52,279 bases of DNA from a virus (lineage: Duplodnaviria; Caudoviricetes), in IMG/VR virus record IMGVR_UViG_3300033420_000007, positions 1 through 52,279 of that record; one strand, written 5' to 3'. A program made the position numbers and the translations under genes. This document shows positions 1 to 52,279 of this stretch, piece by piece. A model generated the notes under the pieces. It ran no database searches. It saw nothing but the letters and a program-made list of their open reading frames with translations, and was not told the origin of the DNA. Within the stretch, counting starts at the first letter, position 1. Each line of letters opens with the position of its first letter.

Positions 1-278
1 ACAAACATTCTTGCTGGTTTAGGTAGTGTTATTTTAGTATCTCTTCAAGGCATTACTGTATAAATAGCGTGTCAGATATTATGTAATACCTCAGCCATTA
101 TCTGCCTATCAGTCATTTGATTTATATCTTCTGCCACAAAGTATAATTTATGCTCGTTAGGTTTATACTCTCGTTTACTACCTACTTGGAACTCAACTTT
201 GAACTCCTCTATAGTAGATTTAGCTAACGATTTCATCCTTTCGAGCATCTCGTTTATTTTTATTTGCTCGTTATCCAT
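1..278 (-). CDS. Partial (runs off window start); probable CobT/VWA-type partner of the adjacent MoxR AAA+ ATPase
   Basis: Reads through the TGA at 72-74 as Gly (EVLHNIGHAIYS, a degenerate HExxH-like segment); lies directly downstream of the AAA+ gene. Confidence 0.45.
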
Positions 279-302
279 ATTTATTCATAATAATTTATAA
301 AA

Positions 303-1349
303 CTAGAAAGTAATATTATCTACCTCTACGACCTCAACAGCCTCTAGTTTTGCTTTCTTAACATCTTCTTTGCTCATCCGTCTATCTCAGTCTTTGAAAA
401 ATTTATTTACTTCATCTCGGATTTGTGGAGCATCTTCTTTGTCAGCTTTAGAAATCATAGCCAACTCACAAGCAGATTTTATATCTAAGTCAGAACACCA
501 ACAAGCCCAGTCAATAAGATTTCTTGTAGAACATTCAAATAATAGCTTCTGTTCTTTGTGTAGAGTTCTTAACGAGTTAGCTACTTTTACCATTCTTGAT
601 ATTACTCAATCTCTAGTATGTGGAGCTGGTGTATCATCTATAGTAACTTTTTTATGTGCAAGTATAATAGCTTTCTCTTTTTTAGCATCAGGGTAACTAA
701 CTATTATCTGTCAAGCAAACCTATCTATAAAAGCTGCATTCATTTCTTTAGTTCAAGCGTAGTCCTCTGTAGGGTTCATAGTAGCAAATATTTTACAATT
801 AGGATGTCTTTGAATTACCTCTCAGTTCTTTTCATCTAAGATTAACACTCTTCTATCGTCCATCGCTGGATGTAATACCATAAGTATCTCCGGCAGGGCA
901 GCGTTGATCTCGTCGATGATAAGCCAAAATCCGTATTTCCAAGCTAGTGTGAATAATCAATCTTGTCGATAAGTTCACTCTTTATTTACTAACCATTTTC
1001 AAACAAGACTATCAACTCCTGTACCTCAATTTAATTGAATTGGTACTAATGGGTTATTAGTTTGTTGGGCAAGGTAATAAATAGAGGTAGTTTTACCAGT
1101 TCCCTTTGGTCACACAAGTAACAACTGTTGGTCTTTTTTTGCTGAGAGTAACAACTTCTTACTATAATCTTTTGCGTTATCCTCTTCCAAAACAAACTGC
1201 ATTCCCTTTGGTGTTAATCTTTCAGCTGTTTCAGATACTCTCTTTATCTCTTCATCCGTAATTTCAGGATATAATTTTTTTCGGCTATCTACTAAGTCAG
1301 TTAGATTAGTGATAGGACATTCTACTCAGTCTATTGCAAATGTATTCAT
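303..1349 (-). CDS. MoxR/CbbQ/NirQ/CobS-like AAA+ ATPase (348 aa)
   Basis: Walker A LLLVGPKGTGKTT, GTYWQDG (CGA=W), Walker B WLIIDEINAA, ATMNP, LNEAAFIDRF, CSTRNL. Confidence 0.9.
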
Positions 1350-1373
1350 AATTATTCATATATTATTTAAAAT

Positions 1374-1958
1374 TTAATCTAAGTTATAAATAAAATCAGA
1401 TTTCTCTACAGGTAATTCTAAATCACCTCAATAAAATTTAACTGTATCCCTATCTCATTGTAATACCTTTATTCTAGTATCTATACTATACAATATGTTA
1501 GGTATTCAATACCAATGACACTGTACTCTTTCCAGCTCGTTTTCATGGAAATCTCTTATAAGATATGATTTAACCATATATTTTTCTGATTCAGCTTTTA
1601 CATCATCAGCTGTAGGCATCTTATCTTTATTCTTCTTAGCTTCTTCTATTAACATAGCTCTTGCTTGTTGTCTTGCTCAGGATAATTTACCAGTACAATA
1701 TGTTCTTGCTATTTTTAGCTGGTCAGAACATTCCATTTTGTAATTAACTAGGCTACTTCTAAGTACCGCTAGTTTTCCTCACATTCTACTAAGCTCATCA
1801 GCTGTATAGCTATGGAAAGATTTACCACTTACTCAAACTCAATTGAGTTCATCTATAATAGATTCTATATCTATTACTACTTGTTGCCAAGTTTTATTTT
1901 GGTAAACTTGTTTTACCTCTTTTTTTGATTCTTCTACTATGTCCGTGAAAACAGCCAT
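1374..1958 (-). CDS. Hypothetical protein (194 aa)
   Basis: Open ATG to TAA under code 25; tight operon spacing. Confidence 0.7.
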
Positions 1959-1975
1959 TGGTTTGTTGGGTTAAA

Positions 1976-2509
1976 TTATAAAGAATTATAGTCTACAGAT
2001 TCTCATTCCCTAATATTAAAATCAGGACTTTCAACAGCAGAATATATACCAATAAGACCAGATAATCTTAAAACACCTCTACAATAACATCTTTTATAAG
2101 CCATATTTGACTTAAATTTTGAATCAATTTTCGTAGATTGACTATGCTTTATAACTCAATCTTTATCTTTTACCATCTCTCCTGTATTCAATTGACTTGC
2201 CTCTCATTCTACAAACACTCGATTATCTCTATCAGTATCTCATTTAAAACCTAAGAAACAAGCCCAAATATGTTGTTGTCGGTTATCAGCTGTAGGTTGT
2301 GTTAAAAATAAAGGTGTTTCCTTTACTACTATCCCACAATAATCAGCTATCTTTTTACATCAGTCATAAGATATAATCTTAGACTTTCAACTTAACCACA
2401 TATCTTTTTCATCTATAACTTTCATTAAATCTACGGTTAGTTTTCAGTATTGTCTTTCTGATTGCATTTCTTCAAAACATTTTCATAAATCTATATCTTT
2501 TTCTTCCAT
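1976..2509 (-). CDS. Putative single-strand annealing/recombination protein (177 aa)
   Basis: GEAS..N...NMAYKRCYCRGVLRLSGLIGIYSAVESPDF resembles the C-terminal motif of phage SSAP-like proteins; located in the recombination block. Confidence 0.45.
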
Positions 2510-2533
2510 TGCTATTATTTTTTAAAAATAAAA

Positions 2534-2806
2534 TTATTTTGTCTCGTGTGGTAGATTGTGTAGTTTCAAAAAATTACTTAATTCTCTACCCTTAATATGT
2601 AATTTAAATACTCTCATACATCAAGGTCTTCATTCTCAGTGAGCTAGTATCTTTCTCTTAGTAGTTTCTTTAGCTAATACTCTTCTTCAGTTCTCCTCAA
2701 TATCATATAGCATAGTATATAAAGTTGCATAGGTTTTTACTCAAGGTATTAATCACTCACTTACTATCTCTTCCAAAGAATAGTCTTTTTCCAATTCAAT
2801 AATCAT
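2534..2806 (-). CDS. Small hypothetical protein (90 aa), possibly DNA-binding
   Basis: Open frame under code 25; first gene after an AT-rich promoter-like gap. Confidence 0.6.
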
Positions 2807-2888
2807 TTTTAATTGTTTAGTTATAAAATTATTTAACTAGAGTATAATAAGAAAAAATAATCAAATTGCAAGAGAATTTTTAGACTTT

Positions 2889-3842
2889 TTATTTTGATAA
2901 CTTTTTCAACGCTATTCATATATCTTTCTGTAGCTTCTTATCCTCTGTAATCTCTATTCTCATCTTCTCTTCACCTTGCCATTTTTTTTCTCAGAAACTA
3001 TAGAACGCTCCCGCTCTTGTTATTGTTCAAGTTGCTATAGCACAAGTAATTAAGTCCTGTAGGTAGTCAAATCATTTACCAAACTTTATAGCTATATCTG
3101 TTGTTTTAAAAGGTATCCCTACTTTATTTTTAATTATATCAAACGTAGTTACTCCACTACCATCTGCATTTTTATCTTTCTTTGTCTTTGTCCTTATAAT
3201 TACACTAGCGTCAAATGGTAATGCGTTTCCTCCAGGTCTTGTATCTCAAAAAGCGTAAGGGTCAAAACTTTTTCTAATTTGATTTATAAAAAAACAGGTA
3301 CATTCATTAGCACTAGCTTTAGGTGTTATTTTTCTTAGTGCTTGACTCATAAGTCTTGCCCTCATACCCATTTCAGCATCTCATATCTCTCAACTCAGCT
3401 CTTTCATCGGAGTTAATTTAGCAACTGAATCTAACACAACAGCTTTTATTTCTCAAGAACCGCATAATTCTTCCATAATACTAAGTGCTTCCTCTGCTGA
3501 ATTTGGTTGACAGAAAACTACGTTATCCATATCTAGTCAAAGGGCTTTTGCATAATCAGGGTCAAGGGCGAATTCAACATCGATATATCAAACCTTTTTA
3601 TCAGGATAAGCTCTTTGAACTTCCGCAAGAAACAATATGGCTAAGGTACTTTTTCATGAGCTTTGCACTCAGTACAATTCCAAAATTCTTCATTCGGGTA
3701 TTCATCCTCACATAGCTAAATCTAGGCTAGGTAATCAAGTAGATAATCTTTTAACTTCTACATTCTCGAAATCTTTGAATAGTCTCGCTGAACCATCTCA
3801 GTGTTTTTTCTGGATAGTCTTTAGTAAATCTGTAATACTCAT
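2889..3842 (-). CDS. recA: RecA recombinase (317 aa)
   Basis: [85 protein letters not shown]. Confidence 0.97.
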
Positions 3843-3844
3843 CT

Positions 3845-3863
3845 GTTATAATGCCGTTATAAG
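3845..3863. promoter_or_regulatory. Palindromic operator copy 1 (GTTATAATGCCGTTATAAG), 2 nt before the recA ATG
   Basis: Near-identical copies at 24371 and 42221. Confidence 0.6.
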
Positions 3864-3865
3864 TT

Positions 3866-3930
3866 AAAAAAAAGACAGGATTTTACTCCCGCCCAGTCAC
3901 CAATAGCAATGGTAGGAGTAGTGTAATCAT
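3866..3930 (-). promoter_or_regulatory. GC-rich hairpin in the recA leader followed by a U-tract (terminator or attenuator)
   Basis: TACTCCTACC pairs with GGCGGGAGTA; a T-run follows about 10 nt later. Confidence 0.5.
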
Positions 3931-3948
3931 ATTAAATTATTTTTCAAG

Positions 3949-4137
3949 CTAATTATTATCAAATATCTGTTTTTTAAGTATTTCTATATGTTCATCTGTC
4001 ATTCATATAAACTTAACATACTTCTTGTTCTCATCAAGTAATTTTAAGTGAGTTATTTGTATATTCTTAAAAGGTGTTCAATCTTTACCTTTAAGTTTGC
4101 TATCAACAATTTCTGCTCAACTAATCTGTAAATACAT
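3949..4137 (-). CDS. Hypothetical protein (62 aa)
   Basis: Open frame ATG to TAG under code 25. Confidence 0.6.
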
Positions 4138-4156
4138 ATTTGTAAGTTATTATAAA

Positions 4157-6121
4157 TTAAAGGGTTATTCTGTTATTCTCCTGTAACTGACTGTCCTCCA
4201 AAGGCTTCCACATATTTTCTATATACTGTTTTGTGTTCTTATTGAACGCTCCAGCTATCTTTAACATTGGCAATCAAGCTCTTGATTTTGGAACACAGAA
4301 CCTAGTCGCATACCAATTATTGTCCCATTTGAAATTATCAAAATCTTTATAACTTGGGTGGTCTCAGTAATTCATTTTAGATACTAAAATTATAGTCGTA
4401 GCCTCTTTTGATATATTACCACTTCAATAAAAATCAAACTCAGTTGGCTCATCTTGCATTTTGTTTGGTTTTCTTAAATGTGATATTAAAACTACTGGTT
4501 TTTTATAGATATCTGTTATTAATTTTAACTCTCTCATCACTTCTCAAACTAACCTATTCTCATTTTCTCATTCAAGAGGTATGTAGTGTAAGTGGTCTAT
4601 GATAAATAAATCAGTCTCTTTTGACTTTCTTTTTATAACTTCTTTTAAGAATCATAACGTAGGCATAGTTCTCTTATCAAATACTATTAAATTATCTGAT
4701 AGTTTTTTGTTAATTTCTACACTATCCTCTAGTTTATTTATATCCTTTAAATTAAATCTATACTCTGCTGATGAAACAGAATCTTTTTTATTTATTTCCT
4801 TTTGTAAGTATCTTAGTGCTGACTCTTCTAGATTTCATTCAAGACTAAACAAACATACTTTTTTGTCATTCAAGGCGTTGTGTATTCAAATATTATAAGC
4901 TATCTCGCTCTTTCATACTCAAGGTTGTGCTCATATTACAACAAGTTCTTCTGGTAATATTCATACTAAATAATCGTCTAATCATTTAATTCAATATTTC
5001 ACTAATGTCTTTCAATCTATTTTCCTTCTATTTTCTTTAGCAATAGATACTAATTTTCAAAAATCAATAAAGTGACTATCTACATCAATAACTTCTCACA
5101 CTCAATTTCTCTCTTGTTGTTGTGCTTTAAACTCTTGTTTTTTCTTGTCTGATATATCCTTTATGTTTGAAAAGTTATCTTTAAACCATTGAAATGTTAA
5201 ATTGTTGTCTAAGTTATAGTGTGTTTTAACAAAAGTAAAAGAATTATATCATTTAGCTTTGTCTGATAAGTAATGCGTTCAAGTAATATAAATAACATTA
5301 TTCATTAAAAACATTCAAATATTACTTCAATCTTTTGGACTCTTAAAATTTTTTCAATCTCTTTGTAATTCTAATCAAGCATATTTGTAAATTAAATCTG
5401 ATATATCTATTTTAAGTATTTCTTCTAAAACAGGGTCATTTATGTTTGTCATAGAAACTTTTATTTCATAATTAACCTTATTTATTAACTTATTCTCCTT
5501 CTCAGAATTTGCAACTTGTGATATATTTTTTATTTTATCACTAAACAATCCTGTATCTTCTAAAATAATACACTCTTTAGATTCCAATCAGTATTTACTT
5601 CTTTTATAATTATAGGTTCAAGGTAATCTTGATAGTCTTGCGATATTTTTACAAGCAACATCAACTTTGAAAGTGTCATCAAAAATTTTATTAACTTCAT
5701 TAAAATAATTTTCTACTCAAAGTTTATAATCTTCTTTATTAAATTTCTGTCATTCTCAAACATAATATATATGAAATCAATTACCTGTAAATACAATATA
5801 TCTATAATCTCAAAATCAATTTTTTTTTAATTCTTCTTTTACATATTCCAAAGATAATAATAGTGTATCATCATCTATTATGTCATTTGTTTGTTTGTAG
5901 TAGTTTTGTCTTAAATCAAAATCCATAAAAAAATAGTTTTTAAATATTATATCATCATCAGAGCTTCTTTTACTTGGATTTTCTACTGATGCTATAAAAA
6001 ATATATCCTCCTTTCTAGTCAGTGCTTCTTCAAATCAAAAAGTAATATCAAGGTTATTGAACTCAACTTTATTCATAGGACATAGTGTTCTTAAAAAATC
6101 AGCAATTTTTTGTTTTTCCAT
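4157..6121 (-). CDS. AEP (RepB-type) primase fused to a DnaB-like SF4 helicase (654 aa)
   Basis: AEP motifs YFFMDFD, FTGNGFHIYY, ARLSRLPGTYN; helicase motifs GILPEELVVIGAQPGVGKS, LFSLE, IIDHLH, VVLISHLRK, DFYGSGNISKEATTII. Confidence 0.9.
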
Positions 6122-6131
6122 TTTAGTTATT

Positions 6132-6986
6132 TTAAATAGTAAAGTTTATAAATTTTTGCAATCATCTTTCTCTTGAAAGAAACTCTGAAAATGTGAATCT
6201 ATGTTGATAATAATTATTGTCTGCAGATGGTTTAACACTAGCCATATAATTTACATAATTTTCAGTAGCCTTTATAATCTCCTCAACAGTATATTCTTTC
6301 CTTTTCTTTATCCATAGCTTAAAAATATCTTCAGTATCTTTAATTACTTTTGGTAATCATTTATTAGCCACTCAAAATGGTTTAACATTATTTCGTTTTT
6401 CCCTAAAACCTACATACTCAGATTTATAGTCTATTTTTGGTTTTTTTTCTAAATGTCAAGTCGCGGGTATATTTGTATTTTCATTATCAATAAATAAAGC
6501 TTCAGATTTTTTTTCGGAATTATTATTATTCTTATTATTATTCTTATTTATAGTATGTGCTTCAAATTTTGAACCACTAGTGCTTCAGTTTTTTAAGCAC
6601 TGGTCCTCTAAATTTTGAACCACTAGTGCTTCAGTTTTTTGACCACTATAACTATATAACTCTAAACATTTACTACTAATATATTTAATAACTAGTTCAT
6701 CATTTATCTTGTAATAGTATTTTGCAGGTAGTCACTTTTTTACAACCGATACAAATCATACATCAATAAATCTTTTAATAGCTGTCCTTTGTTCATATTC
6801 TGATATTCATATTTCTAACTCCATATTTTTTTGTGAAAAAAAGAACTCCTCTTGTCAGAATCTATCTCTTTGTCTTATTAACTCTCAAAAATATCAGGCA
6901 TTTAAAAATCAAAACTCCTTAGCTAAAAACTTATTTACAGGAGTATATCCATCTGATGATAGTAAAGCGTTTAAAATATTATTCAT
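6132..6986 (-). CDS. Phage replication initiator (lambda O-like, N-terminal wHTH; 284 aa)
   Basis: FFFSQKNMELEIGISEYEQRTAIKRFIDVGFVSVVKKGLPAKYYYKIN; contains internal iterons; directly upstream of the primase-helicase. Confidence 0.8.
6557..6648. repeat. Four tandem 23-bp direct repeats (iterons) next to an AT-rich tract; probable replication origin
   Basis: Units start at 6557, 6580, 6603 and 6626 with consensus GTGCTTCARWTTTT..(A/C)CACTA; the period is not a multiple of 3; AT-rich TTA run at about 6520-6550. Confidence 0.8.
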
Positions 6987-7003
6987 AACTTTTATTTATA
7001 AAA

Positions 7004-7116
7004 TAAAAAACCTCCGTCAAATAAATGGCGAAGGTCTCTTTTTGGTTTGTCCTAAAACAGTGTATAAGGGCACTTTGGCATTGTCCACCCTCGCCAAAGT
7101 TTTAAGGACAAAACCG
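7004..7116 (-). promoter_or_regulatory. Structured leader (attenuator) of the replication operon
   Basis: Terminator stem 7026-7035/7010-7019 plus U6; competing antiterminator segment 7087-7096; enclosing stem 7099-7115/7044-7058. Confidence 0.65.
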
Positions 7117-7152
7117 TATTGTTTTTTGAAATAATTTCAAATTAACTCGGAT

Positions 7153-7180
7153 ACTATAATCAAATATTTGTAAATTACAA
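7153..7180 (-). promoter_or_regulatory. sigma70-like promoter TTGTAA-N16-TATAGT for the replication operon
   Basis: Motif and position in the intergenic gap. Confidence 0.6.
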
Positions 7181-7220
7181 GGGATTTTGTAATAATTAAA
7201 AAAACCAAACGGCAATTTGG

Positions 7221-7667
7221 TTATAATGTTTTTAGCTCAGTTATAGTGTTATAGTTTTTATTACATTCGTAGTAATACCCTATTTCTTCTTCGATTTTAG
7301 ATATTATATTATTAAAGTTTTCATATTGTCCTACTTTAAAATCATATCATAAATCTCTTAATATTCAAAGTGTAGCATAGATTCATCTATAATCAACTAT
7401 TACGTGATTTTTTGATTCTATTTCTACCTCAATATTTTTGTTAGTACTCAATCTGTAATAATCGTCTTTTGATTGAACTTCAAATCTATACTCAGCCCTT
7501 TTAATTTTTCAGTTAATCTGAATGTTGAATACTAGACAGAATCAATCTCAAATTACTTCTTTTGATGTAATGCAGTCATCATTGTCTAACGATTGATAGT
7601 GATGATAATACTTGTCTTGGACTTTTTCCAAGTTAATAATAATAAAGTCTGATTGGTGTATAAGCAT
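7221..7667 (-). CDS. Hypothetical protein (148 aa)
   Basis: Open frame under code 25; own promoter-like TTGATT-N15-TATAGT at 7718-7744. Confidence 0.6.
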
Positions 7668-7753
7668 GTCTTTTATAATTTTAATAATAAAAAAAGAATT
7701 TGCCGTCTGGTTAGTTTACTATACACTAAATAATTAAAAATCAAGTATAATTA

Positions 7754-7783
7754 AAAAAAATCCAACACTTTTTAGTGCTGGAT
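7754..7783 (-). terminator. Intrinsic terminator ending the late/lysis transcript
   Basis: ATCCAGCACT-AAAA-AGTGTTGGAT followed by a T-run. Confidence 0.75.
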
Positions 7784-7790
7784 GTATATT

Positions 7791-8639
7791 TTATCATCTT
7801 TTAGTTTTTGTATGTCTTAGAATTTTTTACATTCAATTACTACCTACTATTTAGATTGTTTTATTTATGTATTCTATTTTTGTTTTACAGTCTTTTATAA
7901 ACTCTTTGTCTGTTGTGAGGGTAATTATTTCTTTTAGCAATATTAATAGCCTTGATTTTCTTTTAGTTTCTTCTTTTACTTTATCTGTTGTAGCTAAAAA
8001 AACATAACCTTGACTACTAAATACATTATTTTTGATAAGTTCTTCGTAGTTCTTTAATCAATATATATTATATTTATTACCAAAGTAATTATCTACTACA
8101 AATATATAACCGTTCTTTTTAGTATTTATAGCGTGTCAAAAACTTGAAGGCCTAAAATCTACTCATTCTACTATTCAGTTGTTGTTCTTATCTATTCAGT
8201 ATGCTTTATTTCCTTTGAATGTAGTTGCTATAAAATAACCTTTATCCCAGTATTCTTTAGCGTTGCTTTTAGTTTCAACTTGTATTGACATTACTTTATT
8301 GTCAGGAAACTTAGTGTTCCATCGGTTTCTAACACAGTCAATTCATTTAAATAAATACCGTCAATCTTCTCTTACTTTTCACATTTTAACAGCTAAATCT
8401 CTTACTTCTTTAATATCCTGTTCTGTAAACTTATAATTCATTGTAGATCACAAAGCAGTCATTGAAGCGTATAATGTACAATCTAAGCTCACACCTTGAT
8501 TATACATATAAAATATATCGTCCTGTTTTATTAAATTAGGTATATTAAAAACAGCTCAAGCTAAGTAGTCATTATCAGAAATTTGATCTTCTAGTTCTCA
8601 TAACAATCAATTAGAAGGTGTAAAGTCTTTTTCTTCCAT
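7791..8639 (-). CDS. Papain-fold cysteine peptidase, candidate endolysin (282 aa)
   Basis: YNQGVSLDCTLYA (oxyanion Gln and catalytic Cys) and GHAI...VVDNYFG (His/Asn); follows the holin-like genes. Confidence 0.65.
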
Positions 8640-8642
8640 TTT

Positions 8643-8825
8643 TTATTTATTAGTATCTAAAAATTCTATAGCTCATACTGGGCAGTTATCTTTAGCGTTC
8701 TTTAATCATTACTGATCGTTATTGTCAACACAAAACGCTTTATCTGTTGTTGTGTCTATCTGACAACTCTGTGTTATCGATGCACATACTCAACAGGCTA
8801 TACAGTTTGAGTTTACTTTATACAT
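8643..8825 (-). pseudogene. Single-cluster 4Fe-4S/3Fe-4S ferredoxin with an in-frame TAA at 8709-8711
   Basis: MYKVNSNCIACGVCASI...NNDQ*GLKNAKDNCPVGAIE; CxxCxxC and CP are in the same frame. Confidence 0.8.
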
Positions 8826-8836
8826 AATGTTTTTTA

Positions 8837-9007
8837 TTAATTAAAATCTTTCATTCTTTTTTCCAAAAAATCTCTCTCGTTATATAATTCAGTAAGTTTT
8901 TCTGGTCAGTCATCTGAATGCCAGTTATTTATTTTCTCTCTAATATCTAAATATCTTTTTTCTGTTTGTCTTTTTATTACTTCTAACTGTATTTCTTTTT
9001 CAGTCAT
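8837..9007 (-). CDS. Small hypothetical protein (56 aa)
   Basis: Open frame; charged helical sequence. Confidence 0.55.
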
Positions 9008-9028
9008 ATTGTAAATAGTATCTAAAAA

Positions 9029-9223
9029 CTACACATTGGTACTATCCCCTGATGTAGATGTTGTTGTTGAGTTTTTATTTCACTTATAGTAAAAGGCAAA
9101 TACCATACCTACTATTCATATAAACTGGTCACCATTTATTAATCAAAAAAAGAAACTAATACAAAGCGTTATAGCTATTAATAAAAATACTGTTTTAGTA
9201 GCTGAAGAAAAGATTCTTTTCAT
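9029..9223 (-). CDS. Holin-like two-TM protein (64 aa)
   Basis: MKRIFSSATKTVFLLIAITLCISFFFGLINGDQFIGIVGMVFAFYYKG. Confidence 0.65.
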
Positions 9224-9232
9224 AATTTTTTA

Positions 9233-9829
9233 TTAAATGTTAAAATATTTTCGGATATATCAATAAGCATTATTTGTTTTTCACTTACAACAAGTTCATA
9301 TATGCGAACCTATTCAAGGTTTTCATCTACTTCTTGTAAAATCAGCAATAGAATCTCGTGTCTTTATAAATACTCAATCTAATGTATATTGGTTTACTTT
9401 TTTACTATTTGGATGGTATATTCAAGACTTTCATAAATTACTTCACTTTCTTCATTCATCATAACTTTGTTTTATATTATCAGTATAACTTCACCATTTA
9501 AGATTTTCTACTCTATTGTCTGTCTTTATACTATTTAAGTGCATTACAATATCACTACTATATTCTTGGTTCAAAAAGTTAATAGCAACTAATCTATGAA
9601 TGTTTTTTATAATAATATTGTTATTGTTATGTAATCATACAAATAAGTATCATGTTTGTTTATTTTTGTATTTCTTTATTAATTTACCTTTTATATATCT
9701 AGGAAAGGTATTTCATTTTTTATTTGTTATATTTACATAATGTGAAATAGATTTAACATTTCATAAACTTGATACTTGATATAATCACTCATAACCACCA
9801 ACATCTTTTCGAATTTCTAAATTTTCCAT
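9233..9829 (-). CDS. NUMOD4-HNH-NUMOD1 homing endonuclease (198 aa)
   Basis: EIWKDVGGYEGLYQVSSLGNVKS, IHRLVA, VMHLNSIKTDNRVENLKW, AYGYIWKY. Confidence 0.92.
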
Positions 9830-9831
9830 AA

Positions 9832-42239: not shown

Positions 42240-42241
42240 TA

Positions 42242-42466: not shown

Positions 42467-42482
42467 AATTTAATATTATTAT

Positions 42483-42524: not shown

Positions 42525-42544
42525 ATTTTATATTTTATTTTCGA

Positions 42545-43516
42545 CTAAGACAATCTAATATTCGCCACACGAACTTGGAATTCACTCGCTCTACATACGA
42601 ATACTGTAGCTTCTGTAACCATGAATTTGATTGCAGCACCAGTCCTATCCAACATAGATTTTCACATTCCATACAAATCTTCCATATATAATGTATCTTG
42701 ACCTTGTGATTTTTCAGTAACCACATAGAAGTCTTCAACAACATTTGGAGCAAATGTAACTACATCAGAAGCGATAGCAAATGAAGCAACGAATGGAAGT
42801 TTACCGATCATAGATTGGTAGAATCCAACATCAACTCAAGTACCTACTTCGTTTGTGTTATCAAGATTAACTCTTACATCACCCATCAATGATAAATTGA
42901 TAGCTCTCTTCATACCGTAACCTACAAATATTGCAGTTGGTCTTTGAGCGTAAGTTCTAACGATACCTTCGATAGCAGTTTCAATAAGGTCTGTTCTGAA
43001 ACCTAATGCGTTGTTGTTATCATCGTAGAAGTTGATAGCAGAAAGAATATCGATGTTTTTTCTCAATCAATCGAATTGTAATACTGAAACACCAGTATCT
43101 CAAGTTATAATCAATTGTTCTTCATCTTGGATAACTTCTCTCAAAGCAACTTCAGTCAATTCACCTTCTAATTCGATGAAAGATTTACCAGCAGCAAGCA
43201 TTCTATCAGTAATAGATTTTGTTTTACCAAGTTCTTTATAGATAGCACTTCTTCTAGCGTAAGTTGTAGCATCTTCTGTAGGAGTAAGTCATTCAGCAAA
43301 AGCAGAAGTTCCAACTCACATAGCAGTCAATACATTCCAAGAAGCAGCTAGACCAGCACCAGTTTTTCTAGGCAATCTATCTCTAATTGGAGTTTCTTTG
43401 AAAGTCAATCTATTAATAAATGCGTCAAGATTTTCTCTTGTAAGGATTGCTCCTTGTATGTAAGCAGGCGTTCACATTGCCTTCTCTACATTTTCTAATG
43501 TTTGTTTTATATCCAT
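42545..43516 (-). CDS. Major capsid protein (323 aa)
   Basis: RENLD, ETPIRDRLPR, EEQLIITGD...QFDGL; lies between the scaffold and neck genes. Confidence 0.88.
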
Positions 43517-43544
43517 TTGAATAATATTAAAATAAATAAAAGTT

Positions 43545-45551
43545 TTATTGCATTGATTTCTTTACTTCAGCCAAAGCTTCTCATAAAGACATTTTTGGAT
43601 TTACATCCATCATCTTGTTAACTCTTTCTTCGAAACTAGCATTGTTGTTTTCCTCTCTTGAGAAAGATTTCTCTAAAGCTGTATAACTAGCAATACTTTT
43701 TCTTGGAGCAGCGTTATTTCAAATTACCTCCACTAAGTTCTTTAACGAATTAAATTCTCAAGATAGTTCACTGTATGATTTTTCAATAGTTGATAATTTA
43801 TTTTCTTCAAAAGATTTAGTAAGATTGTTAGATTTTTCTATTTCAGTTTGTAAGTTACTTACTGTTTTAGTCAATCCATTAATCATTTCTGATACACTAG
43901 CCATAATTTCTTCTTTCATATCACTGATAGCTTTACTCATAGCAACTGTATCAATACCTTTTCTATCTGGAGAAGCTTTTACTTTAGATTTTTCTGTTTC
44001 CTCTTCATCTTCTTCTTTCATTCATTCTGCTTTCTTCTCTTTAACTTTCTTATCAGCTTCTTCATTAGCTTCCTCTTCTTCTTCTTGGATTGTAGGAGCT
44101 TTCTTTTCAGTATCATCTTCATCTTCTGATTTAGTAGCTAATTGTTCTCTTGCTTGTCTTTTTGCATTGTGATCGGACATAGCTTTTCATGGAGTTACAG
44201 GCGTAGCCTTATCAACTCATTCTACATCAGCTGTTTCCTCAACAACTTCTTCCTCATTTTTAGCATATCAACATGCTTTGCAAACTTTACCTACCATCTC
44301 AGCTCAACATTTTTCACATTTACATTCTTCTGTTGATTTCGCAACCTCTTCTTGTACAGTTTCTACTGCAACTTCTACTGGTTCAATTGCTTCAGCCTCG
44401 CCTACGCTTTCAACAACTGGTTCAGTAACTGCTTCAGTAACAACTACTTCTGTGTTTTCTGGGATTGGTGTTTCTGATTTAGTAACCTCTTCTACAGCTG
44501 GCACTTCTTCAACTACAGTTTCTACAACAGCCTCAGCAACAGCTTCAACAGGTGTTTCAACTACAACTTCTTCAGCAACAACAGTCTCTTCAGTTTCGTC
44601 AACACTTTTAGTAAATCTCATTATTTTATTGTTAATTGATAAATTCTTACTTACATCTTTATTTACTGCAATTTGTCCTTCACCAACTCAAGATTGGTTT
44701 ACTGGCAAATCACTGTGGAACATTCAAGCCATTCTATTTCAAAGTGAAACTTTATGTCTCTTTCTTTCCATCATAACTCTATATGCCTCAGCTACTTTCA
44801 TAACTTCTTTATCAGATAAGTCATTACCATTAGCTTGTGGTCTAGCTCATTCTTTATTTACATAGAATGTATAGCATTTCTCCATAAGATTAATTTCATC
44901 AGCAGTTATAGTCATATCTACAACATTAGCTTTTTCTTGGAAATTAGTTTTGTTCATCTCTTGATTATTATAAGTTAAAGAATTTAAATCATTATTTTTT
45001 TTAAGTCATTTATAATACTCGATAAGTTTTTTTCATTCAGTAGTATACTCGTGCTTCTCTACATCAAATGACTTTGCTATAGATAGTGTAGTATTCATAT
45101 TACTAGGGTTTTTAACTACAGATATTTCAGTAAGCATCACATCAGTAAAAGTTTTAATCTGTCTACCAGCTTCTTTTACATACTCAAATGTAGCATCTAC
45201 TACTTTACCTCATACAGATAAAGCTACTGATTTTCCTTTCTCTAATAATACAGCTAAGTCTTTTCCAATGCTATAATCTAAATCTACTTCTCATTTAACG
45301 GTCATCTGCATATCTTTATTAAGACTAGCATCTTTCCAAACTCATATTTCTGAATAGAATTTATTCTCGTGTTCTACTCTAATAGGTATATTTCAATTGA
45401 TTACTCATTCTGCCATTTTTTTAATAGCATTTTCTGAGAACCTTTCGTTATCTCTATCAATAGAAGGATCAGAGGCTATTCATTCTATCATCAATACATT
45501 TCTTTTTGAATCTCTTGTTGCCTTAGTAATAGGTATATTCAATTTGAACAT
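43545..45551 (-). CDS. HK97-type prohead protease fused in frame to an acidic scaffold (668 aa); internal start at 44621
   Basis: EGIASDPSIDRDNERF, ALSVGG, LTEISVVKNPSN; frame read as open from about 45060 through the ATG at 44621. Confidence 0.85.
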
Positions 45552-45569
45552 AGATTATTTTGAAATTAT

Positions 45570-45675
45570 AAAAAACCAACATACTTTTCAGTTTGTCGGC
45601 TTTCAAATCGAAGCTCAGGGTGATTAGCCCTCACATAATTTAGGCGTATTATAGATAAATAACTTAATATTGCAA
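45570..45675 (-). promoter_or_regulatory. Late promoter plus GAGC/leader-terminator module, copy A
   Basis: TTGCAA-N16-TATAATACGC, GAGCTTC..GAAAGCCGACA..TGTTGGTTTTT. Confidence 0.7.
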
Positions 45676-45682
45676 TAGATTT

Positions 45683-46066
45683 TTAATTTTTTGTCATAGC
45701 CCTTCTTTTATTTTCTACTATTAATGCTCTTTGACTTACACTTAATGAAGCTAATCTTGCGTTTTCTATTACTTGCACATCAAATAAATTAATAGTGTGA
45801 CAATGTTTACATTTAATCTCTACTACTGAATCAATACTGATTGCTCTACCTAATAATCTTTTACATTCTTTACATCTTAAATCTGTAGCAAGATTTTGGA
45901 ACGCTTGTCATTTAGGTCAGATATCTTGACTAATTCTACTCTCTCAAACATAGCTTGTAAATCTGTTGTCTTCGTTTAATATCTCTATCTGTCATTCTCC
46001 TGCAGCTCTACATAATACTTTTTTAGACACGAAACATTTGTACTCTTTTAGTGGTTTTGTATTCAT
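45683..46066 (-). CDS. Mu Com-like zinc-finger regulator with a degenerate tandem first domain (127 aa)
   Basis: DLRCKECKRLLGRA...VEIKCKHCHTIN. Confidence 0.75.
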
Positions 46067-46081
46067 ATGTATTTTTATTAT

Positions 46082-46921
46082 TTAAAAACTATCTATAAAT
46101 TCTTTTGGACTACTAGTGAAATCGTATAATATTGTACATTTGCACGAAGGATGTAATGGAGGAGCATCAACTCAATGAAAACTATCGCCTATTCTTACTG
46201 TTAATCAGTTTAAACTATTACAAGGTCAGCAAGTTCTTTCATCAGCTACAGCTTCCCGAGTCTTTGTTTCTGCTCAGTTTACTCTAGCCATTTCGTGTCT
46301 TACAAATTGTAATAAACTGTTACTTTCAGTAGTCATTATTATTCAAGCTCTATCTCTAGCGATTTCTTTTCAAAGTTTTATTAGGCTACCAGTCATCTGT
46401 TTCATAGTCAATCCATTTTCTAGTCAAGTAACCATATTCTTAGCTAGTTTATTCATTGTAGTTTTGTCTAGTCACTTTATCAATGTACCTATCCTTTGCC
46501 CAATTATTTTTTCTAATCATACTCAGATTTTAAAGTCTTTTCTTGAACCTAGTTGGTCTAGTATACTTTGTCATCATATTCTAGCTACTCATAATAAGTG
46601 CATACCTATAATGGCATTATAATCTGTATTAGATAAACTGTTTATTTTTTTTGAAGCCTGTCAGGAAATATAATCTTCTAATTTTTTCCTATCCTCTACA
46701 CTAGCTTTATTATTTGCTAGTCATTCTAATACATTCTTTCATAGCGTATTGTAGACAGTCCAAACTATTCACGATAACACCAGTTCATCTCGCTGACTTT
46801 TTAGTAACTTCTGTGTTTTTTTCTCTGTAACTACATAATCGTCACTTGACTCAATTTCATCAAGCTCTGCGTTCTCTTCATATTCATCTTCATAGTTTTT
46901 TTCTATACAATCTTTACACAT
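46082..46921 (-). CDS. Mu gpF/SPP1 gp7-like minor head protein (279 aa)
   Basis: RAGIMTTE, KTWEAVADERTCGPC, APPLHPSCKCTI. Confidence 0.88.
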
Positions 46922-48377
46922 AGTCTTCTTCGTAATATAAATCTTTTTGGAACATATTATCTTCGTCATCTATATCTTTCTTGTAAGGCATACGCTTAAT
47001 GTTTACTTTTGCGTTTTCTTCTTTCCCTCTCCTATCTTGTTTTGGTAATCAAGGTTCAGGTTGTTTACCTGTGGCAGTTCTCAATTTAGCTCAGAGTTCC
47101 TCAGAAAAAATTGGTTCTTTCAAAGGGTCTTTTCAATCTCTAGCTCTTATTTCATTTGCTGTATATACTCAGTTCTGTAAGTATAAATCATCTACTTGTG
47201 CTTGTTTCAACTGTATATCTACATTATCACTTTCAATAAACTTAAACTCTAATCGTTTGAACTTATCGTTTCACTCTTCCATATATCTTATTATATTTCT
47301 TGTGAAGTATTCCTCTATAAGTTTTTTATTACTTCTTACTCATCTAGCATTACTCAAAGCACGCATAGTCTCTCAAGTACTTCTTGTCATATCCTGCAAT
47401 ATATTTGCATCAATAGAAGAAAGTCAGTAAGTAGCTAGTTTTATTTTAGATAACCAGTTTATATATTCGATATACTGCATATCCTTTTGAGATGTACTCA
47501 AAGGTATAAACTTCTTTTCTTGACTAGAACCTCGTACAAATTTCATTGAGTGAGGATTTCATATAACTGTAGCATTCCAAGTAGCGATAAACTCTTCTGC
47601 TTGGTCTTGTGTCATATCTCATAGGTCTAATATTCCTGGAGGTAAGTTATCTTTTGTAAAGTGCTTTATATTAAACATATCAGCTTCTAACGCTGCTTGT
47701 ACTTGAAGTAGTATTGATTCTATAGCAGATAATCAATATCAAAAAGTATCTATATCATTACTAGGGTTAGCCATAATATAAACTAAATCTTCTTTCTTGA
47801 AACTACATCTAACTTTTTCATAAACTAACTGAAGGTATGCTGGGTCACCTAGTTCTCAATACTCATTATATATAGGTCTCAAGGTTCAGCCGTCAACGCT
47901 ATTCAAAGCTACTATTCTTTTTCAATCTAAGCTTCTTATAATTTCTATTCACGCAGAATCGAGTGTAAGAATATCTTCCATTACTCTATCTAATAATATT
48001 CTCATATTCTCACCATTCATATTCATATACTCAAAAAGATTATAACAAGTATCTATCTCTTTCTCGTAGTCTTTCTTTATGTTACCTGGTGCGTTCTTTT
48101 TCACTTGTATTATCCATTCTGATTGAGATACAGCTTTCTTAATTACATTAATACAAATTCTTATGATAGCATCTCTACTAGCGATCTGTCTAAGTATTTT
48201 AAACGTTACTTTTCAAGGTTTCCTTAATCAGTATTGTTCTATTTGTTGAGGTGATGAATACCCTCTAGTGGTATTTAATGAAATTGCTTTGAACTTTTTG
48301 GCATCAGTACTCTCTGTTGCTTTCTGTACTGTTGCTAGTCAAGTATTTTTCTGAAATTTTCTACTTTTTTTACTCAT
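46914..48377 (-). CDS. Portal protein, HK97-like (487 aa)
   Basis: VDGGTLRP, GYGLSAIES, NLPPGIL, KDMQYIEY, GVYTANEIRA. Confidence 0.9.
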
Positions 48378-48416
48378 TTTGAAAAAATATGCAAAAATAA
48401 ATGTACAATTTTCGGG

Positions 48417-48444
48417 ATTATACATAATCTTTACAAAAAAACAA
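48417..48444 (-). promoter_or_regulatory. Promoter TTGTTT-N16-TATAAT upstream of the portal gene
   Basis: Motif and position. Confidence 0.55.
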
Positions 48445-48456
48445 CACTATTTTATA

Positions 48457-48588
48457 CTAACTTCAAAAAATTGCTCAAATTATCCGTAAAACTAATAAGA
48501 AAATTAACCAATCTCTACATCAAGGCATCTTGGTACTCATTCAAAATCACATTCAATTTCATATACTCTGATAAGCTCAAAATCTCAT
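48457..48588 (-). CDS. Small membrane protein (43 aa)
   Basis: TAATG-coupled to the upstream gene; C-terminal TM WLIFLLVLWIIGAIFG. Confidence 0.5.
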
Positions 48589-50125: not shown

Positions 50126-50398
50126 TTATTTAGTTTTAAAAAGCTTTGTTAATCTCTTAATTATTTCTAACATCTCATCGTTTACTTTTAACTCGTTCCA
50201 TTCATTCTGTACTAATCTTTTGAATTCAGGATACCTACTTAATACACTGTTAGTTATATAATCTACAAAAACTACTATAGTTGTAAATTTCTTTACAGGT
50301 ATAACAACAGTATCCACTACCTCTTCAAACTCTTTTACAGTTGTGTCTGGTTTGATACTATTAGTAAACAATTTGCCTTTTTCCTTTTGGTTTCCCAT
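50126..50398 (-). CDS. Hypothetical protein (90 aa)
   Basis: Present in the ORF track; no TGA. Confidence 0.65.
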   Translation of the reverse strand: MGNQKEKGKLFTNSIKPDTTVKEFEEVVDTVVIPVKKFTTIVVFVDYITNSVLSRYPEFKRLVQNEWNELKVNDEMLEIIKRLTKLFKTK

Positions 50399-50717
50399 TT
50401 ATATTTAGTTTATTTTTTAAAATCTGCTTTTCAGTCTGCTCTCTTTGGTTTTCATCATATCTTTTTTTTGAACATACATCACAATACTTAAGGTTATTCC
50501 TTCTTATTCAATCTTTCTCAAATGTTACTCAACAATCTCTACAAACATATTGTTTTTTATTCCAAGCTAATTCTATAACCTTATTTTTTTTTTTGGTAAT
50601 AGATATTTTCAAATCTTTTAATTCTTTTCTTAAATTATATATCTGTACCATTAATACCTTATTCATATCTTTTGTCTCAAAGAGTTCTTTTCTTAACTCA
50701 AGTAATTCTTTTTCCAT
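50361..50717 (-). CDS. Coiled-coil plus Zn-ribbon protein (3' end uncertain)
   Basis: CRDCG...YCDVC; promoter TTGAAT-N16-TATAAT at 50747-50774. Confidence 0.55.
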
Positions 50718-50743
50718 TAGTTAGTATTAATATGTAAATATGT

Positions 50744-51043
50744 TTAATTATACGCTTTTTTTGTAAAAATTCAAGCGTTATAGTATTTATTTCGTCTCTC
50801 TACAAATTCTTGCTTATATACTTGTACATTACAATCAGTTTCTTTAAACTTCATAGCGTTCTGGATAGTCTCCCACATACAGAATACATAATCTCCTGCT
50901 ACACTATAATCTTCTATTAACATACTCTGGTTACTCAAAGCTTTCTTATATTCTACATCAGTTGTATAGTATTTGTACCCTAAAAATCAGTTTCCTAATA
51001 CTAGTAAAATAATAGCTAATAACATAATCTTAATCTTGTTCAT
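50744..51043 (-). CDS. Membrane-anchored hypothetical protein (99 aa)
   Basis: N-terminal TM. Confidence 0.55.
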
Positions 51044-51045
51044 TT

Positions 51046-51435
51046 TTATTTTTTATTAGAATTTAAAAGTTTCTTGAGCCTATAATTTTCCTTAGCCTTA
51101 GCTAATCTAACCTCTCTATTCTTCTTGTATCGTTCATTGTAATACTCTTTCCGTTTCTGTGTCTTATCAGGATTGTTATTGGTATAATTCTTGTTGTATT
51201 CTAGTTTAGCCTCTCTATTCTTCTTGTATCGTTCATTGTAATACTCTTTTCTCCTCTCAGCCTCCTTAGCTTTCCATTCAGCCCTCTCTTTTAGCTTTTG
51301 TTCTTTTCATTCTAATAGCTTTCTTCTCTTCTCATCTCTTGCTATAGCCCTCTGCACCATCACCTCACTCTGTTTTCTCTGTGGATGTCTTTCTACAAAC
51401 TTATCCACTAACTCTTTTATACTATCTAAACTCAT
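51046..51435 (-). CDS. Basic coiled-coil protein with an internal duplication (129 aa)
   Basis: KEYYNEWYKKNRE occurs twice (about 40-bp repeat at 51111 and 51210). Confidence 0.6.
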
Positions 51436-51459
51436 CTTTATATATATTAATAAATAAAA

Positions 51460-51951
51460 TTAATCTAACGCTCAAATAAAGTCTCAAAACTTACCCTCAT
51501 CTATATAAATCTTCGCAAATTTAACCGCTTCATCTAAATTCTCATAAAACATCCCTACTCATTTTCAATTTATAGTATCTATACAATCTCAATCCATAAA
51601 CACTGATTCTATCTTCTCTATCCTATACCTGAAACAGTGCTTATCATCTATACAATATTTTTTCTGGGTGTCGTAATCATCCCATTGCGGACTAACTATA
51701 TAAACAACACTCTTTCTGATGTCTCATACATAGCACTGGCTGTTAGGATTTACATATTCTGGTTCATTATATACTTGAGTATTTGGTAAACTATTAATTT
51801 TAGTATATATATCATTAAAAGATATATTCATATTAGCTATCTTATTCTCCAAAGCAGTAATCCTACTATCTAATGTCTTATCCTCATTCTCTACCTTTAT
51901 AGTACATCATCAAAGAAATAGTATAGGCAACAATATCCATAATTTATTCAT
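51460..51951 (-). CDS. Putative lipoprotein (163 aa)
   Basis: MNKLWILLPILFLGG-C lipobox, which requires TGA TGA = Gly Gly. Confidence 0.65.
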
Positions 51952-51968
51952 TTTATATTAGTTAAAAA

Positions 51969-52279
51969 TTAAAACTTTCCTCAATAATATTGTTTTAGTA
52001 CATTATCAATTCTCCAATCTTGATTATATTTTCAAGTCTCCGGAATATCTTTACAATACACATACTCTCAACCTCTATTCATATTATCTTCTAATAACTT
52101 ATCACTATATTCGCTTTGTATATTACACTCTCACATAGTTACGTGTCTATTTTTATCTTTAGGTCATACATCTATATTTGTACAATATCATATCCTTACA
52201 TTTGCAACAAGACATCAAAAGCCTCCGGCGTACTCCTCCAACCAAACATCAGCCACAGTTATAATACTATTCTCTAGTC
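51969..52279 (-). CDS. Partial hypothetical protein (5' end outside the window)
   Basis: Open frame to the TAA at 51969 under code 25. Confidence 0.55.

Follow-up and report, generated by a model that had tools for sequence, protein, structure and literature searches.

The 52,279-nucleotide stretch analyzed here (positions 1–52279, the window; 54% of a myovirus genome according to its virus record) very probably comes from a contractile-tailed phage in which all classes of gene use the genetic code of Absconditabacteria (SR1), passively matching that of the host. In this code, UGA would specify glycine and CGA and CGG tryptophan; UGG would stay tryptophan, CGU/CGC and AGA/AGG would stay arginine, and only UAA and UAG would terminate translation. 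A sequence-only reading had proposed these three reassignments, and they are supported both by tallies of masked codons against aligned residues and by gains in Pfam score. The gene array is as follows:

1–52279, minus strand: about 67 genes, nearly all on this strand; partial myovirus genome, read with TGA as Gly, CGA/CGG as Trp, and TAA/TAG as stops

Open reading frames (ORFs) of ≥100 amino acids number 11 under translation table 11 and 67 under table 25; thus, the window is open solely when TGA is a sense codon. The 67 ORFs end in TAA (n = 57) or TAG (n = 10), and in 15 of the 26 ORFs held in common with a standard-code relative, contig G001, the alignment comes within 6 residues of the C terminus. 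Pfam matches include the contractile-tail (myovirus) genes for portal, major capsid, prohead protease, tail sheath, and baseplate (baseplate J), as well as Mu F, RecA, DnaB, and AAA_5; no terminase was found within the window. Scores for structural matches were as follows:

Phage_portal, 79.9 bits; SU10_MCP, 40.9 bits; Peptidase_S78, 35.2 bits
Phage_sheath_1C, 31.8 bits; Baseplate_J, 109.9 bits; GpP-like, 30.4 bits

A codon-to-column tally had been suggested as a check on the proposed code. We masked TGA, CGA, and CGG as X, aligned the window ORFs to those of the syntenic G001 (26 matches, 28 to 66% identity), and computed the same tally for all 64 codons. Window TGA lies opposite Gly at 171 of 292 positions, opposite Trp at 1, and opposite a stop at 0; by summed BLOSUM62 score, Gly is its best assignment (850; next best, 50). 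A Mycoplasma-type code (table 4), in which TGA is tryptophan, would open the reading frames equally well, but it is close to inconceivable given the single Trp partner among 292, a Trp content that would reach ∼6% of residues, and the presence of TGA at the Walker A glycines of both RecA and DnaB. TGA had been placed at several motif glycines by the sequence-only reading, which was fully correct for the RecA Walker A motif (RecA ORF 2889–3842, 235.5 bits with Pfam RecA), the HNH motif YGGRG (all three Gly are TGA), and the lipobox; in the AAA+ motif GPKGTGKT, the first Gly alone is TGA, the other two being GGA and GGT.

3645–3674, minus strand: RecA Walker A, Y-G-VQSS-G-KST, in ORF 2889–3842; both Gly are TGA
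51904–51921, minus strand: lipobox-like LFL-G-G-C in ORF 51460–51951, a putative lipoprotein; both Gly are TGA

As for the two sense codons, window CGA faces Trp in G001 at 14 of 24 positions and Arg at none, and CGG faces Trp at 3 of 4 and Arg at none; TGG faces Trp at 23 of 33, and AGA and AGG face Arg at 104 of 197 and 14 of 25, respectively. Pooled, the partners of CGA/CGG in G001 are Trp at 17 of 28 positions and Arg at 0 of 28, versus Trp at 0 of 222 and Arg at 118 of 222 for AGA/AGG (Fisher p = 2e-19 for Trp and 4e-9 for Arg); this codon signal is far beyond chance. Summed BLOSUM62 scores are best for W with both CGA (147; Arg, −58) and CGG (35; Arg, −11). G001's own CGA codons lie opposite window Arg at 20 of 48 positions; thus, G001 reads CGA as Arg.

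Extended to all comparators, the tally covers 42 of the 75 CGA/CGG codons, the remaining 33 being without a comparator. Trp is the commonest partner at 27 sites; Tyr or Phe leads at 6, some other residue at 9, and Arg at none. CGA alone (37 of 67 compared) has Trp as commonest partner at 23 sites and Arg at 0; for CGG, a small sample (5 of 8 compared), four sites have Trp as the leading partner and one has Tyr. A residue other than Trp leads at 15 of the 42 sites, a rate similar to that for TGG (11 of 34). Among homologues of ORF 22092–22691, Trp is commonest at three of four CGA/CGG sites and Phe at the fourth. Some mixed Arg/Trp decoding of CGA/CGG may occur in the window.

The codon coordinates named in the sequence-only reading hold wherever checked, and alignments support Trp at the sites starting at 966, 9251, 9809, 25874, and 46256; at the Dps-like CGA, a Pfam gain of 2.7 bits, the sole indication there, hints at Trp.

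966–968, minus strand: CGA, TY-W-QDG, in the AAA_5 ATPase ORF 303–1349; opposite TGG (Trp) in G001
9251–9253, minus strand: CGA, GYI-W-KY, at the C terminus of the NUMOD4-HNH ORF 9233–9829; Trp in 90 of 93 homologues
9809–9811, minus strand: CGA, N-terminal Trp of the NUMOD4 motif (EI-W-KD), in the same HNH endonuclease ORF 9233–9829; Trp in 111 of 116 homologues
11958–11960, minus strand: CGG, SDGNVE-W-FII, in ORF 11946–12407; codon present, Trp putative, with no comparator reaching the site
24424–24426, minus strand: CGA near the C terminus of a Dps/ferritin-like protein, ORF 24397–24828; codon for residue 135
25874–25876, minus strand: CGA, near-invariant Trp of ENCR-W-AT, in a second HNH ORF, 25649–26317; Trp in 116 of 119 homologues
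25916–25918, minus strand: CGT, invariant Arg of SID-R-ID, in HNH ORF 25649–26317; Arg in 119 of 119 homologues
46256–46258, minus strand: CGG, KT-W-EAVADE, in the Mu F-like head protein ORF 46082–46969; Trp in 19 of 19 standard-code relatives

The third CGA of the NUMOD4-HNH ORF faces Trp in 56 of 112 homologues, and the other three of the second HNH ORF do so in 89 of 114, 85 of 103, and 65 of 73. Translating CGA/CGG as Trp instead of Arg raised Pfam scores for NUMOD4 of ORF 9233–9829 (53.4 to 61.9 bits, +8.5), Phage_Mu_F of ORF 46082–46969 (51.1 to 58.3, +7.2), Mu Gp48 (+5.6), Lcl_C (+3.7), YQBQ (+3.5), sheath C (+3.3), AAA_5 of ORF 303–1349 (88.7 to 91.4, +2.7), and Ferritin of ORF 24397–24828 (19.7 to 22.4, +2.7, with the end of the alignment moving from residue 132 to 142); slight drops were seen for portal (−0.9), HK97-gp10 (−1.2), DUF5074 (−1.2), CbbQ_C (−1.1), and AAA (−2.2). 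The alignment of ORF 24397–24828 to Listeria Dps 1qgh (E = 2e-7) stops at residue 132, before the CGA. Because the CGT at 25916–25918 faces an invariant Arg, CGY stays arginine; Arg is also commonest at two further CGY sites, the remaining informative sites being few. Judging from the aligned residues, CGU/CGC, AGA, and AGG all remain arginine in the window.

The standard code table is the sole argument for a reading in which CGA and CGG are still arginine and Arg is tolerated where relatives have Trp; a variant invokes C-to-U RNA editing of CGG to UGG, which would cover CGG alone. We regard both as extremely improbable: Arg is absent as a partner from all 28 positions against G001 and is the commonest partner at none of the 42 overall, the codons fall in near-invariant Trp columns (116 of 119 and 111 of 116), and true Arg columns are spelled AGA, AGG, or CGT. 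Editing of CGA would moreover produce UGA, which is Gly in an SR1-type code, yet CGA faces Gly at 0 of 24 positions.

The 67 non-nested minus-strand ORFs comprise 16,187 codons, including 907 TGA, 67 CGA, 8 CGG, and 89 TGG. TGA reaches 56 per 1,000 codons, versus just 24 for GGN and just 5.5 for TGG, and CGA density over whole ORFs is ∼41 per 10,000 codons; TGA makes up approximately 70% of Gly codons, and CGA/CGG make up 46% of Trp codons. The low GC content of the window (30%), its spelling of Arg mostly as AGA, and its use of CGG at one-eighth the frequency of CGA resemble what is described for Absconditabacteria genomes (PMC8629427). Early and late genes are both recoded, as the sequence-only reading had maintained: TGA occurs at 49 per 1,000 codons on the replication side (1–12500) and at 49 in the head-tail-baseplate block (29200–48500), and the corresponding values for CGA are 3.3 and 3.2.

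We found no tRNA genes in the window, nor in G001 (77% complete) or a recoded sister contig, G145. Since the visible part of the phage lacks a tRNA, its translation would depend on host tRNAs: a glycine tRNA with anticodon UCA would decode UGA, and CGA and CGG would be read by tRNAs that combine tryptophan identity elements with the anticodons UCG and CCG. Such decoding by the host argues that the recoding is probably a passive match to the host code rather than an early/late switch run by the phage. Alternatively, the host could use the standard code, with the phage enforcing its own by means of phage-encoded suppressor tRNAs; 46% of the genome is unseen, leaving room for tRNA genes, and phage-run stop recoding is a known strategy (10.1101/2021.08.26.457843; PMC10746230). 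However, with TGA and CGA equally dense in replication and structural genes, and 907 TGA in all, not one gene would be translatable when the phage first enters a standard-code cell; the host Arg tRNA that reads CGA would also need silencing, and the three contigs contain no tRNA gene. We therefore consider phage-run recoding very unlikely. Stop-recoded gut phages share in-frame canonical stop codons with the window but are reported to use them as a late-gene switch (10.1101/2021.08.26.457843), with a code that differs from the host's and, often, suppressor tRNAs (PMC10746230); in the window, recoding is uniform in early and late genes, includes sense codons, and is accompanied by no tRNA gene.

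From the code alone, we infer that the host belongs to Absconditabacteria. The sequence-only reading had named the same host, its one inferred step; the assignment agrees with the code and with the tRNAs of two Absconditabacteria genomes, neither identified as the host: each encodes tRNA-UCA, tRNA-UCG, and tRNA-CCG. The UCG and CCG tRNAs of these two genomes resemble tRNA-Trp(CCA) (A1:U72, G73, and no A20), while their Arg tRNAs have G1, A73, and A20; these identity rules are those used by Shulgina and Eddy (2021, PMC8629427). A spacer or prophage link, in turn, was not found. A pattern scan of 185,579 species genomes did not detect the capsid, and a search of 141 Absconditabacterales genomes did not turn up the portal; the missing prophage match may be compatible with a strictly lytic phage. 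A low-sensitivity spacer search of bases 1–20000 against the 141 genomes, scoring two candidates per genome, returned short AT-rich matches alone, the best of which (33 nt) is a poly-Asn repeat with no adjoining repeat array. We also noted one promoter-like stretch:

2842–2899, minus strand: TTGCAA, ∼17 nt, and TATACT behind an A-rich run, upstream of ORF 2534–2806

This stretch resembles sequences upstream of Absconditabacterales genes, and one match sits just upstream of an L10 leader. At E ≤ 1e-5 it matches 14 to 15 of 141 Absconditabacterales genomes versus 2 of 201 Gracilibacteria-order genomes, a comparison in which unequal numbers of candidates were scored per genome and many matches stem from neighboring genome entries; the resulting host signal is weak. 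These data bear on whether the host might instead be a member of Gracilibacteria or of another unsampled lineage with UGA=Gly, in which CGA and CGG moved to Trp independently or jointly. In some Gracilibacteria, CGG appears to mean Trp (Shulgina and Eddy 2021, PMC8629427), and the capsid, portal, and spacer searches did not connect the phage directly with an Absconditabacterales genome. That study, however, describes CGA=Trp for Absconditabacteria only, and CGA is eightfold commoner than CGG in the window; together with the promoter-like matches, albeit a weak comparison, this makes a host outside Absconditabacteria unlikely.

The phage's relatives allow the code change to be placed among close neighbors. 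Standard-code IMG/VR relatives (G001 and 21 loci) share the window's gene order from portal to AAA+ ATPase and 54 to 70% capsid identity with it, but they differ from it in having no TGA within reading frames and in decoding CGA/CGG as Arg. Only 2 of the 24 contigs compared are recoded: the window and G145, in which TGA faces Gly at 37 of 56 positions, CGA faces Trp at 8 of 12, and CGG faces Trp at 2 of 2. The two pair in the unrooted capsid tree with support of 100/98. Their position among close standard-code relatives is thus suggestive of a lineage that passed from one genetic code to another and had its codons rewritten; we infer the direction, the capsid tree being unrooted. At least nine viral contigs other than the window carry the same code signal.

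Both the bacterial code (2021, PMC8629427) and phages with TGA=Gly (2023, PMC10746230) are already published. Using Codetta, Shulgina and Eddy (2021, eLife 10:e71402, PMC8629427) predicted CGA/CGG=Trp in addition to UGA=Gly in Absconditabacteria, as the sequence-only reading had correctly stated; the same three codons have the same new meanings in the window, with CGU/CGC kept as Arg, but that study concerns bacterial genomes and the window belongs to a virus whose visible part encodes no tRNA. It also describes, in two assemblies, Bacilli phages that read AGG as Met, following a sense reassignment of the host without a decoding tRNA and so depending on the tRNAs of the host; in the window, by contrast, a stop codon changed together with two sense codons, and other amino acids are involved. 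Like the window, the code 25 phages of Absconditabacteria and Gracilibacteria (Liu, Jaffe, Chen, Bor, and Banfield 2023, mBio, PMC10746230) have dense in-frame TGA, the code of their host, and a coding density that rises strongly when table 25 replaces table 11; their code was judged by TGA and coding density only, and the main text mentions CGA, CGG, and arginine 0 times. We found no published report of CGA/CGG=Trp in phages. Standard software and the official SR1 code table turn nearly half of the window's tryptophans into arginine, and the mistranslation foreseen for code 25 annotation is already present in databases: public copies of proteins P0001, P0121, and P0243 carry R at 11 of the 11 CGA/CGG positions examined.

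The phage genome (52,279 bases, classed linear, 54% complete, 30% G+C) contains only 11 ORFs of ≥100 amino acids under the standard bacterial code (table 11) versus 67 with TGA read as Gly (table 25), with little space between them and almost all of them on the minus strand. Pfam matches in the window identify a contractile-tailed phage.

Annotated features of the window (Pfam matches unless noted)
303-1349, minus: AAA_5 ATPase
2889-3842, minus: RecA, 317 amino acids, without intein
4157-6121, minus: DnaB-type helicase
9233-9829, minus: HNH endonuclease (NUMOD4)
17195-21067, minus: fibre-like protein, 1,290 amino acids (weak Lcl_C, DUF1566-like, and YadA-head matches)
24397-24828, minus: Dps/ferritin-like protein (Listeria Dps 1qgh, E = 2e-7; Pfam Ferritin 22.4 bits, below the cutoff of 24.5)
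25649-26317, minus: second HNH endonuclease
29207-33647, minus: baseplate proteins
38113-39441, minus: tail sheath
42545-43516, minus: major capsid protein
43545-45551, minus: prohead protease
45683-46066, minus: small protein with Mu Com-like zinc ribbon (Zn_ribbon_Com, 29.9 bits)
46082-46969, minus: Mu F-like protein
46914-48425, minus: portal

The sequence-only reading held that this phage uses the alternative code of its host, with TGA as Gly and CGA and CGG as Trp; we find that both observation and interpretation are right, and the codon-to-column tallies below uphold all three reassignments. The code itself was published for Absconditabacteria (SR1) by Shulgina & Eddy (PMC8629427). To these points we add that the closest relatives of the phage use the standard code.

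The strongest evidence comes from one such relative, G001, a 74,893-base viral contig recovered by a portal search, whose gene order is common with that of the window. G001 uses the standard code: it is 88% coding under table 11, TGA serves solely as a stop, and no in-frame TGA occurs in the aligned regions. In the translated window ORFs, the placeholder X replaced each TGA, CGA, and CGG to keep the codons under test from steering the alignment; 26 of these ORFs matched G001 by tblastn, at 28-66% identity. Opposite TGA, G001 has Gly at 171 of 292 positions, Trp at one, and a stop at none. Opposite CGA it has Trp at 14 of 24 (Tyr 3, Leu 2, Arg 0), and opposite CGG, Trp at 3 of 4 and Tyr at the other. 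Control codons were read from the same alignments: TGG faced Trp (23/33), AGA and AGG faced Arg (104/197 and 14/25), and GGT faced Gly (58/94). CGA/CGG differ from AGA/AGG for both Trp and Arg (Fisher's exact test, p = 2e-19 and 4e-9, respectively), and are indistinguishable from TGG (p = 0.59). By summed BLOSUM62 score, TGA is best read as Gly and both CGA and CGG as Trp; other well-populated codons keep their standard meaning, the few exceptions being rare codons or near-ties such as GTC. In the reverse direction, CGA and CGG of G001 lie opposite Arg of the window phage at 20 of 48 and 6 of 14 positions. These tallies rule out TGA as Trp (opposite 1 of 292), CGA/CGG as Arg (opposite CGA at 0 of 24), and C-to-U editing.

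A broader set of comparators gave the same answer. The capsid-alignment scan yielded 23 loci, 22 of which lack in-frame TGA in their aligned parts and have CGA mostly opposite Arg; the remaining locus, on the sister contig G145, is recoded like the window. Among standard-code relatives, the commonest residue is Trp at 13 of 25 CGA and 3 of 4 CGG positions, and Arg at none. For genes without a relative in this group, masked queries were run against large protein databases. The four CGA codons of the second HNH gene face Trp in 89/114, 116/119, 85/103, and 65/73 homologues, and the three in the NUMOD4-HNH gene in 111/116, 56/112 (with Tyr in a further 37 and Phe in 14), and 90/93. Of the four CGA/CGG sites in ORF 22092-22691, three have Trp as their most frequent partner and one has Phe; the C-terminal half of the fibre-like protein has a single foreign homologue, with Trp opposite one CGA and Ile opposite another. 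Overall, comparators were available for 42 of the 75 CGA/CGG codons: the commonest residue is Trp at 27, Tyr or Phe at 6, another residue at 9, and Arg at none. CGT still encodes Arg, as judged from the HNH family, where it faces Arg in 119/119 homologues at the invariant SID-R-ID column. Replacing Arg with Trp raised Pfam scores (in bits) for NUMOD4 (+8.5), Mu F (+7.2), Mu Gp48 (+5.6), Lcl_C (+3.7), YQBQ (+3.5), sheath C (+3.3), AAA_5 (+2.7), and Ferritin (+2.7), and lowered them for portal (-0.9), CbbQ_C (-1.1), HK97-gp10 (-1.2), DUF5074 (-1.2), and AAA (-2.2).

All of the codons quoted in the sequence-only reading lie where it placed them, and three of its examples need qualification. The CGG at 11958-11960, a putative Trp codon, falls outside the 42 for which comparators were available. 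In the AAA+ P-loop, the first Gly is indeed TGA; the remaining glycines are not. The C-terminal codon cited as the conserved Trp of Dps is present, and as an example it is weakly supported because it lies three residues past the point where the alignment with solved Dps structures stops.

Codon use was counted in 58 ORFs of the minus strand, 15,749 codons in total. TGA accounts for 884 of them (56 per 1,000) versus only 24 per 1,000 for all GGN codons, and Gly content is ordinary once TGA is counted as Gly. In the same ORFs, TGG occurs at 5.5 per 1,000, CGA at 4.2, CGG at 0.6, CGT plus CGC at 1.1, and AGA plus AGG at 31; when CGA/CGG are counted as Trp codons, Trp goes from 5.5 up to about 10 per 1,000, close to the 12.7 in G001, the nearest standard-code relative. 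The 67 nonnested ORFs contain 907 TGA, 67 CGA, 8 CGG, and 89 TGG codons. The claim that recoding covers early and late genes alike is borne out: TGA density is 49 per 1,000 on the replication side and likewise in the head-tail block, where the corresponding CGA densities are 3.3 and 3.2. Given such uniformity, the recoding is not a late-gene switch.

The same signal is seen in at least nine other viral contigs. A pattern requiring CGA/CGG at the HNH Trp column retrieved five viral contigs, all TGA-recoded, with coding cover of 0-0.23 under table 11 versus 0.72-0.89 under table 25; in their HNH genes, Trp-majority columns lie under 8 of 8 CGA and 3 of 3 CGG codons, 5 of these 11 cases being so by construction of the pattern. 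Eleven contigs carry the same HNH motif with TGA at its Gly: their invariant Arg is AGA (5), AGG (2), CGT (3), or CGC (1), and never CGA/CGG, and their Trp column is TGG (6), CGA (4), or TTT (Phe; 1). In an unrooted capsid tree of 23 rows, G145 and the window form a pair (100/98 support) amid standard-code phages; locus L034, with no more than 219 aligned residues, was left out of this tree. One codon tally of G145 took ORFs of both strands and thus included antisense noise; the aligned-region tally is cleaner. When viral contigs were first scanned with the AAA+ protein, a single distant locus (L004) emerged, and it entered only a coding-density table and one RecA search. A metagenome scan with that protein, intended to extend the contig in search of tRNAs, found only relatives at 34-41% identity. 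The sheath alignment A2 was left out, being cut by a locus boundary.

ARAGORN found no tRNA in the window, and none was found in G001 or G145; because of this absence, the phage would rely on host tRNAs. Absconditabacteria genomes were located by a pattern for the RecA Walker A motif in which TGA encodes the glycines, and tRNAs were listed for two of them: both carry tRNA-UCA, tRNA-UCG, and tRNA-CCG. The UCG and CCG tRNAs resemble tRNA-Trp(CCA), with A1:U72, discriminator G73, and no A20; the UCU, CCU, GCG, and ACG tRNAs have G1, A73, and A20. Shulgina & Eddy's assignment of such tRNAs to Trp rests on these identity rules, and in their account CGA and CGG move together because one tRNA-UCG reads both (PMC8629427). 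A tRNA-Arg(ACG) in one Absconditabacterales genome (L124; G005:C57:114-387) has an encoded CCA end, unlike the other tRNAs of that genome.

The code matches Absconditabacteria as the probable host clade; the account in PMC8629427 describes CGA as Trp for this clade alone. Other searches for the host gave little. The capsid-alignment scan of species genomes produced 60 pattern matches and no relatives, and the portal had no match in 141 Absconditabacterales genomes. Bases 1-20000 had short matches (E ≤ 0.01) in 99 of the 141, the best being a poly-Asn repeat; no spacer-like match was found, and none of three inspected among the best lay within a repeat array. A promoter-like stretch (2842-2899, minus strand, upstream of ORF 2534-2806) is 83-85% identical over about 50 nucleotides to Absconditabacterales upstream sequences. 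At E ≤ 1e-5 it was matched in 14-15 of 141 Absconditabacterales versus 2 of 201 genomes of a Gracilibacteria order, a comparison in which the numbers of candidates scored differed between searches and many matches came from neighbouring genome handles. The match lies directly upstream of an L10 leader in one genome and about 115 bases upstream of a RecA-like ORF in another; the stretch is a weak host signal. The promoter-like word AAAATTCTCTTG is not enriched in the window (19 matches versus 16.5 expected). The nearest GenBank capsids, from SPO1-like Bacillus phages (24-27% identity), are too distant to inform on host.

Phages that follow a sense-codon change of their host were described for AGG as Met by Shulgina & Eddy (PMC8629427), and TGA=Gly phages of these bacteria have been published (PMC10746230). 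The main text of the latter never mentions CGA, CGG, or arginine, and we found no report of CGA/CGG as Trp in a phage in the literature searched, shallowly for most papers. We consider it an evenly balanced proposition that one tight phage lineage (capsids 54-77% identical) spans two codes; that a branch of it left standard-code hosts for Absconditabacteria, converting some 900 Gly codons to TGA, turning almost half of the Trp codons into CGA/CGG, and purging all CGA/CGG Arg codons (about 9 per 1,000 in G001); and that TGA=Gly phages in public virus collections generally share the code and are all mistranslated at present. If so, sense-codon reassignment would act as a firewall against viruses for a limited time only, the change in CGA/CGG would be a second, overlooked barrier, and the "code-11-compatible" phages proposed for SR1 bacteria would be crippled unless they also avoided CGA/CGG. 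The view in PMC10746230 that TGA-free phages can replicate in both code types is also qualified, because its main text leaves CGA/CGG unconsidered. With nearest relatives that are standard-code, the phage is a natural example of viruses tracking a change of three codons, and bears on whether recoding shields cells from viruses, a question raised in PMC8629427.

The practical weight falls on annotation and host prediction. The protein database places the proteins of this phage on a contig of 94,360 bases. Public database copies of three proteins of the window phage have Arg at all 11 Trp sites examined, and to our knowledge no current virus pipeline includes a step that translates CGA/CGG to Trp; hence about 46% of the phage's tryptophans, often its most conserved residues, are wrong in databases and also in structure predictions and family searches. 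The combination of CGA/CGG in Trp columns and TGA in Gly columns is a cheap marker for SR1-type hosts.

Several genes deserve mention in their own right. The fibre-like protein contains 110 TGA and 10 CGA codons, and its C-terminal half (residues 760-1290) has almost no homologues of similar length among 5.8 billion proteins. The Dps-like gene, an unusual cargo, is flanked by the tail-fibre region and an HNH endonuclease gene, and the zinc-ribbon gene separates the Mu F-like gene from that of the prohead protease. ORF 51046-51435 (minus strand) encodes the peptide KEYYNE-W-YKKNRE twice (51130-51231), with CGA for Trp in each copy and a CGG-coded Trp directly before the second. The RecA of G001 (L009:14712-16712) is a 666-amino-acid ORF split by an intein (Pfam Intein_splicing, 46.4 bits) that carries a LAGLIDADG endonuclease (LAGLIDADG_2, 31.7 bits).
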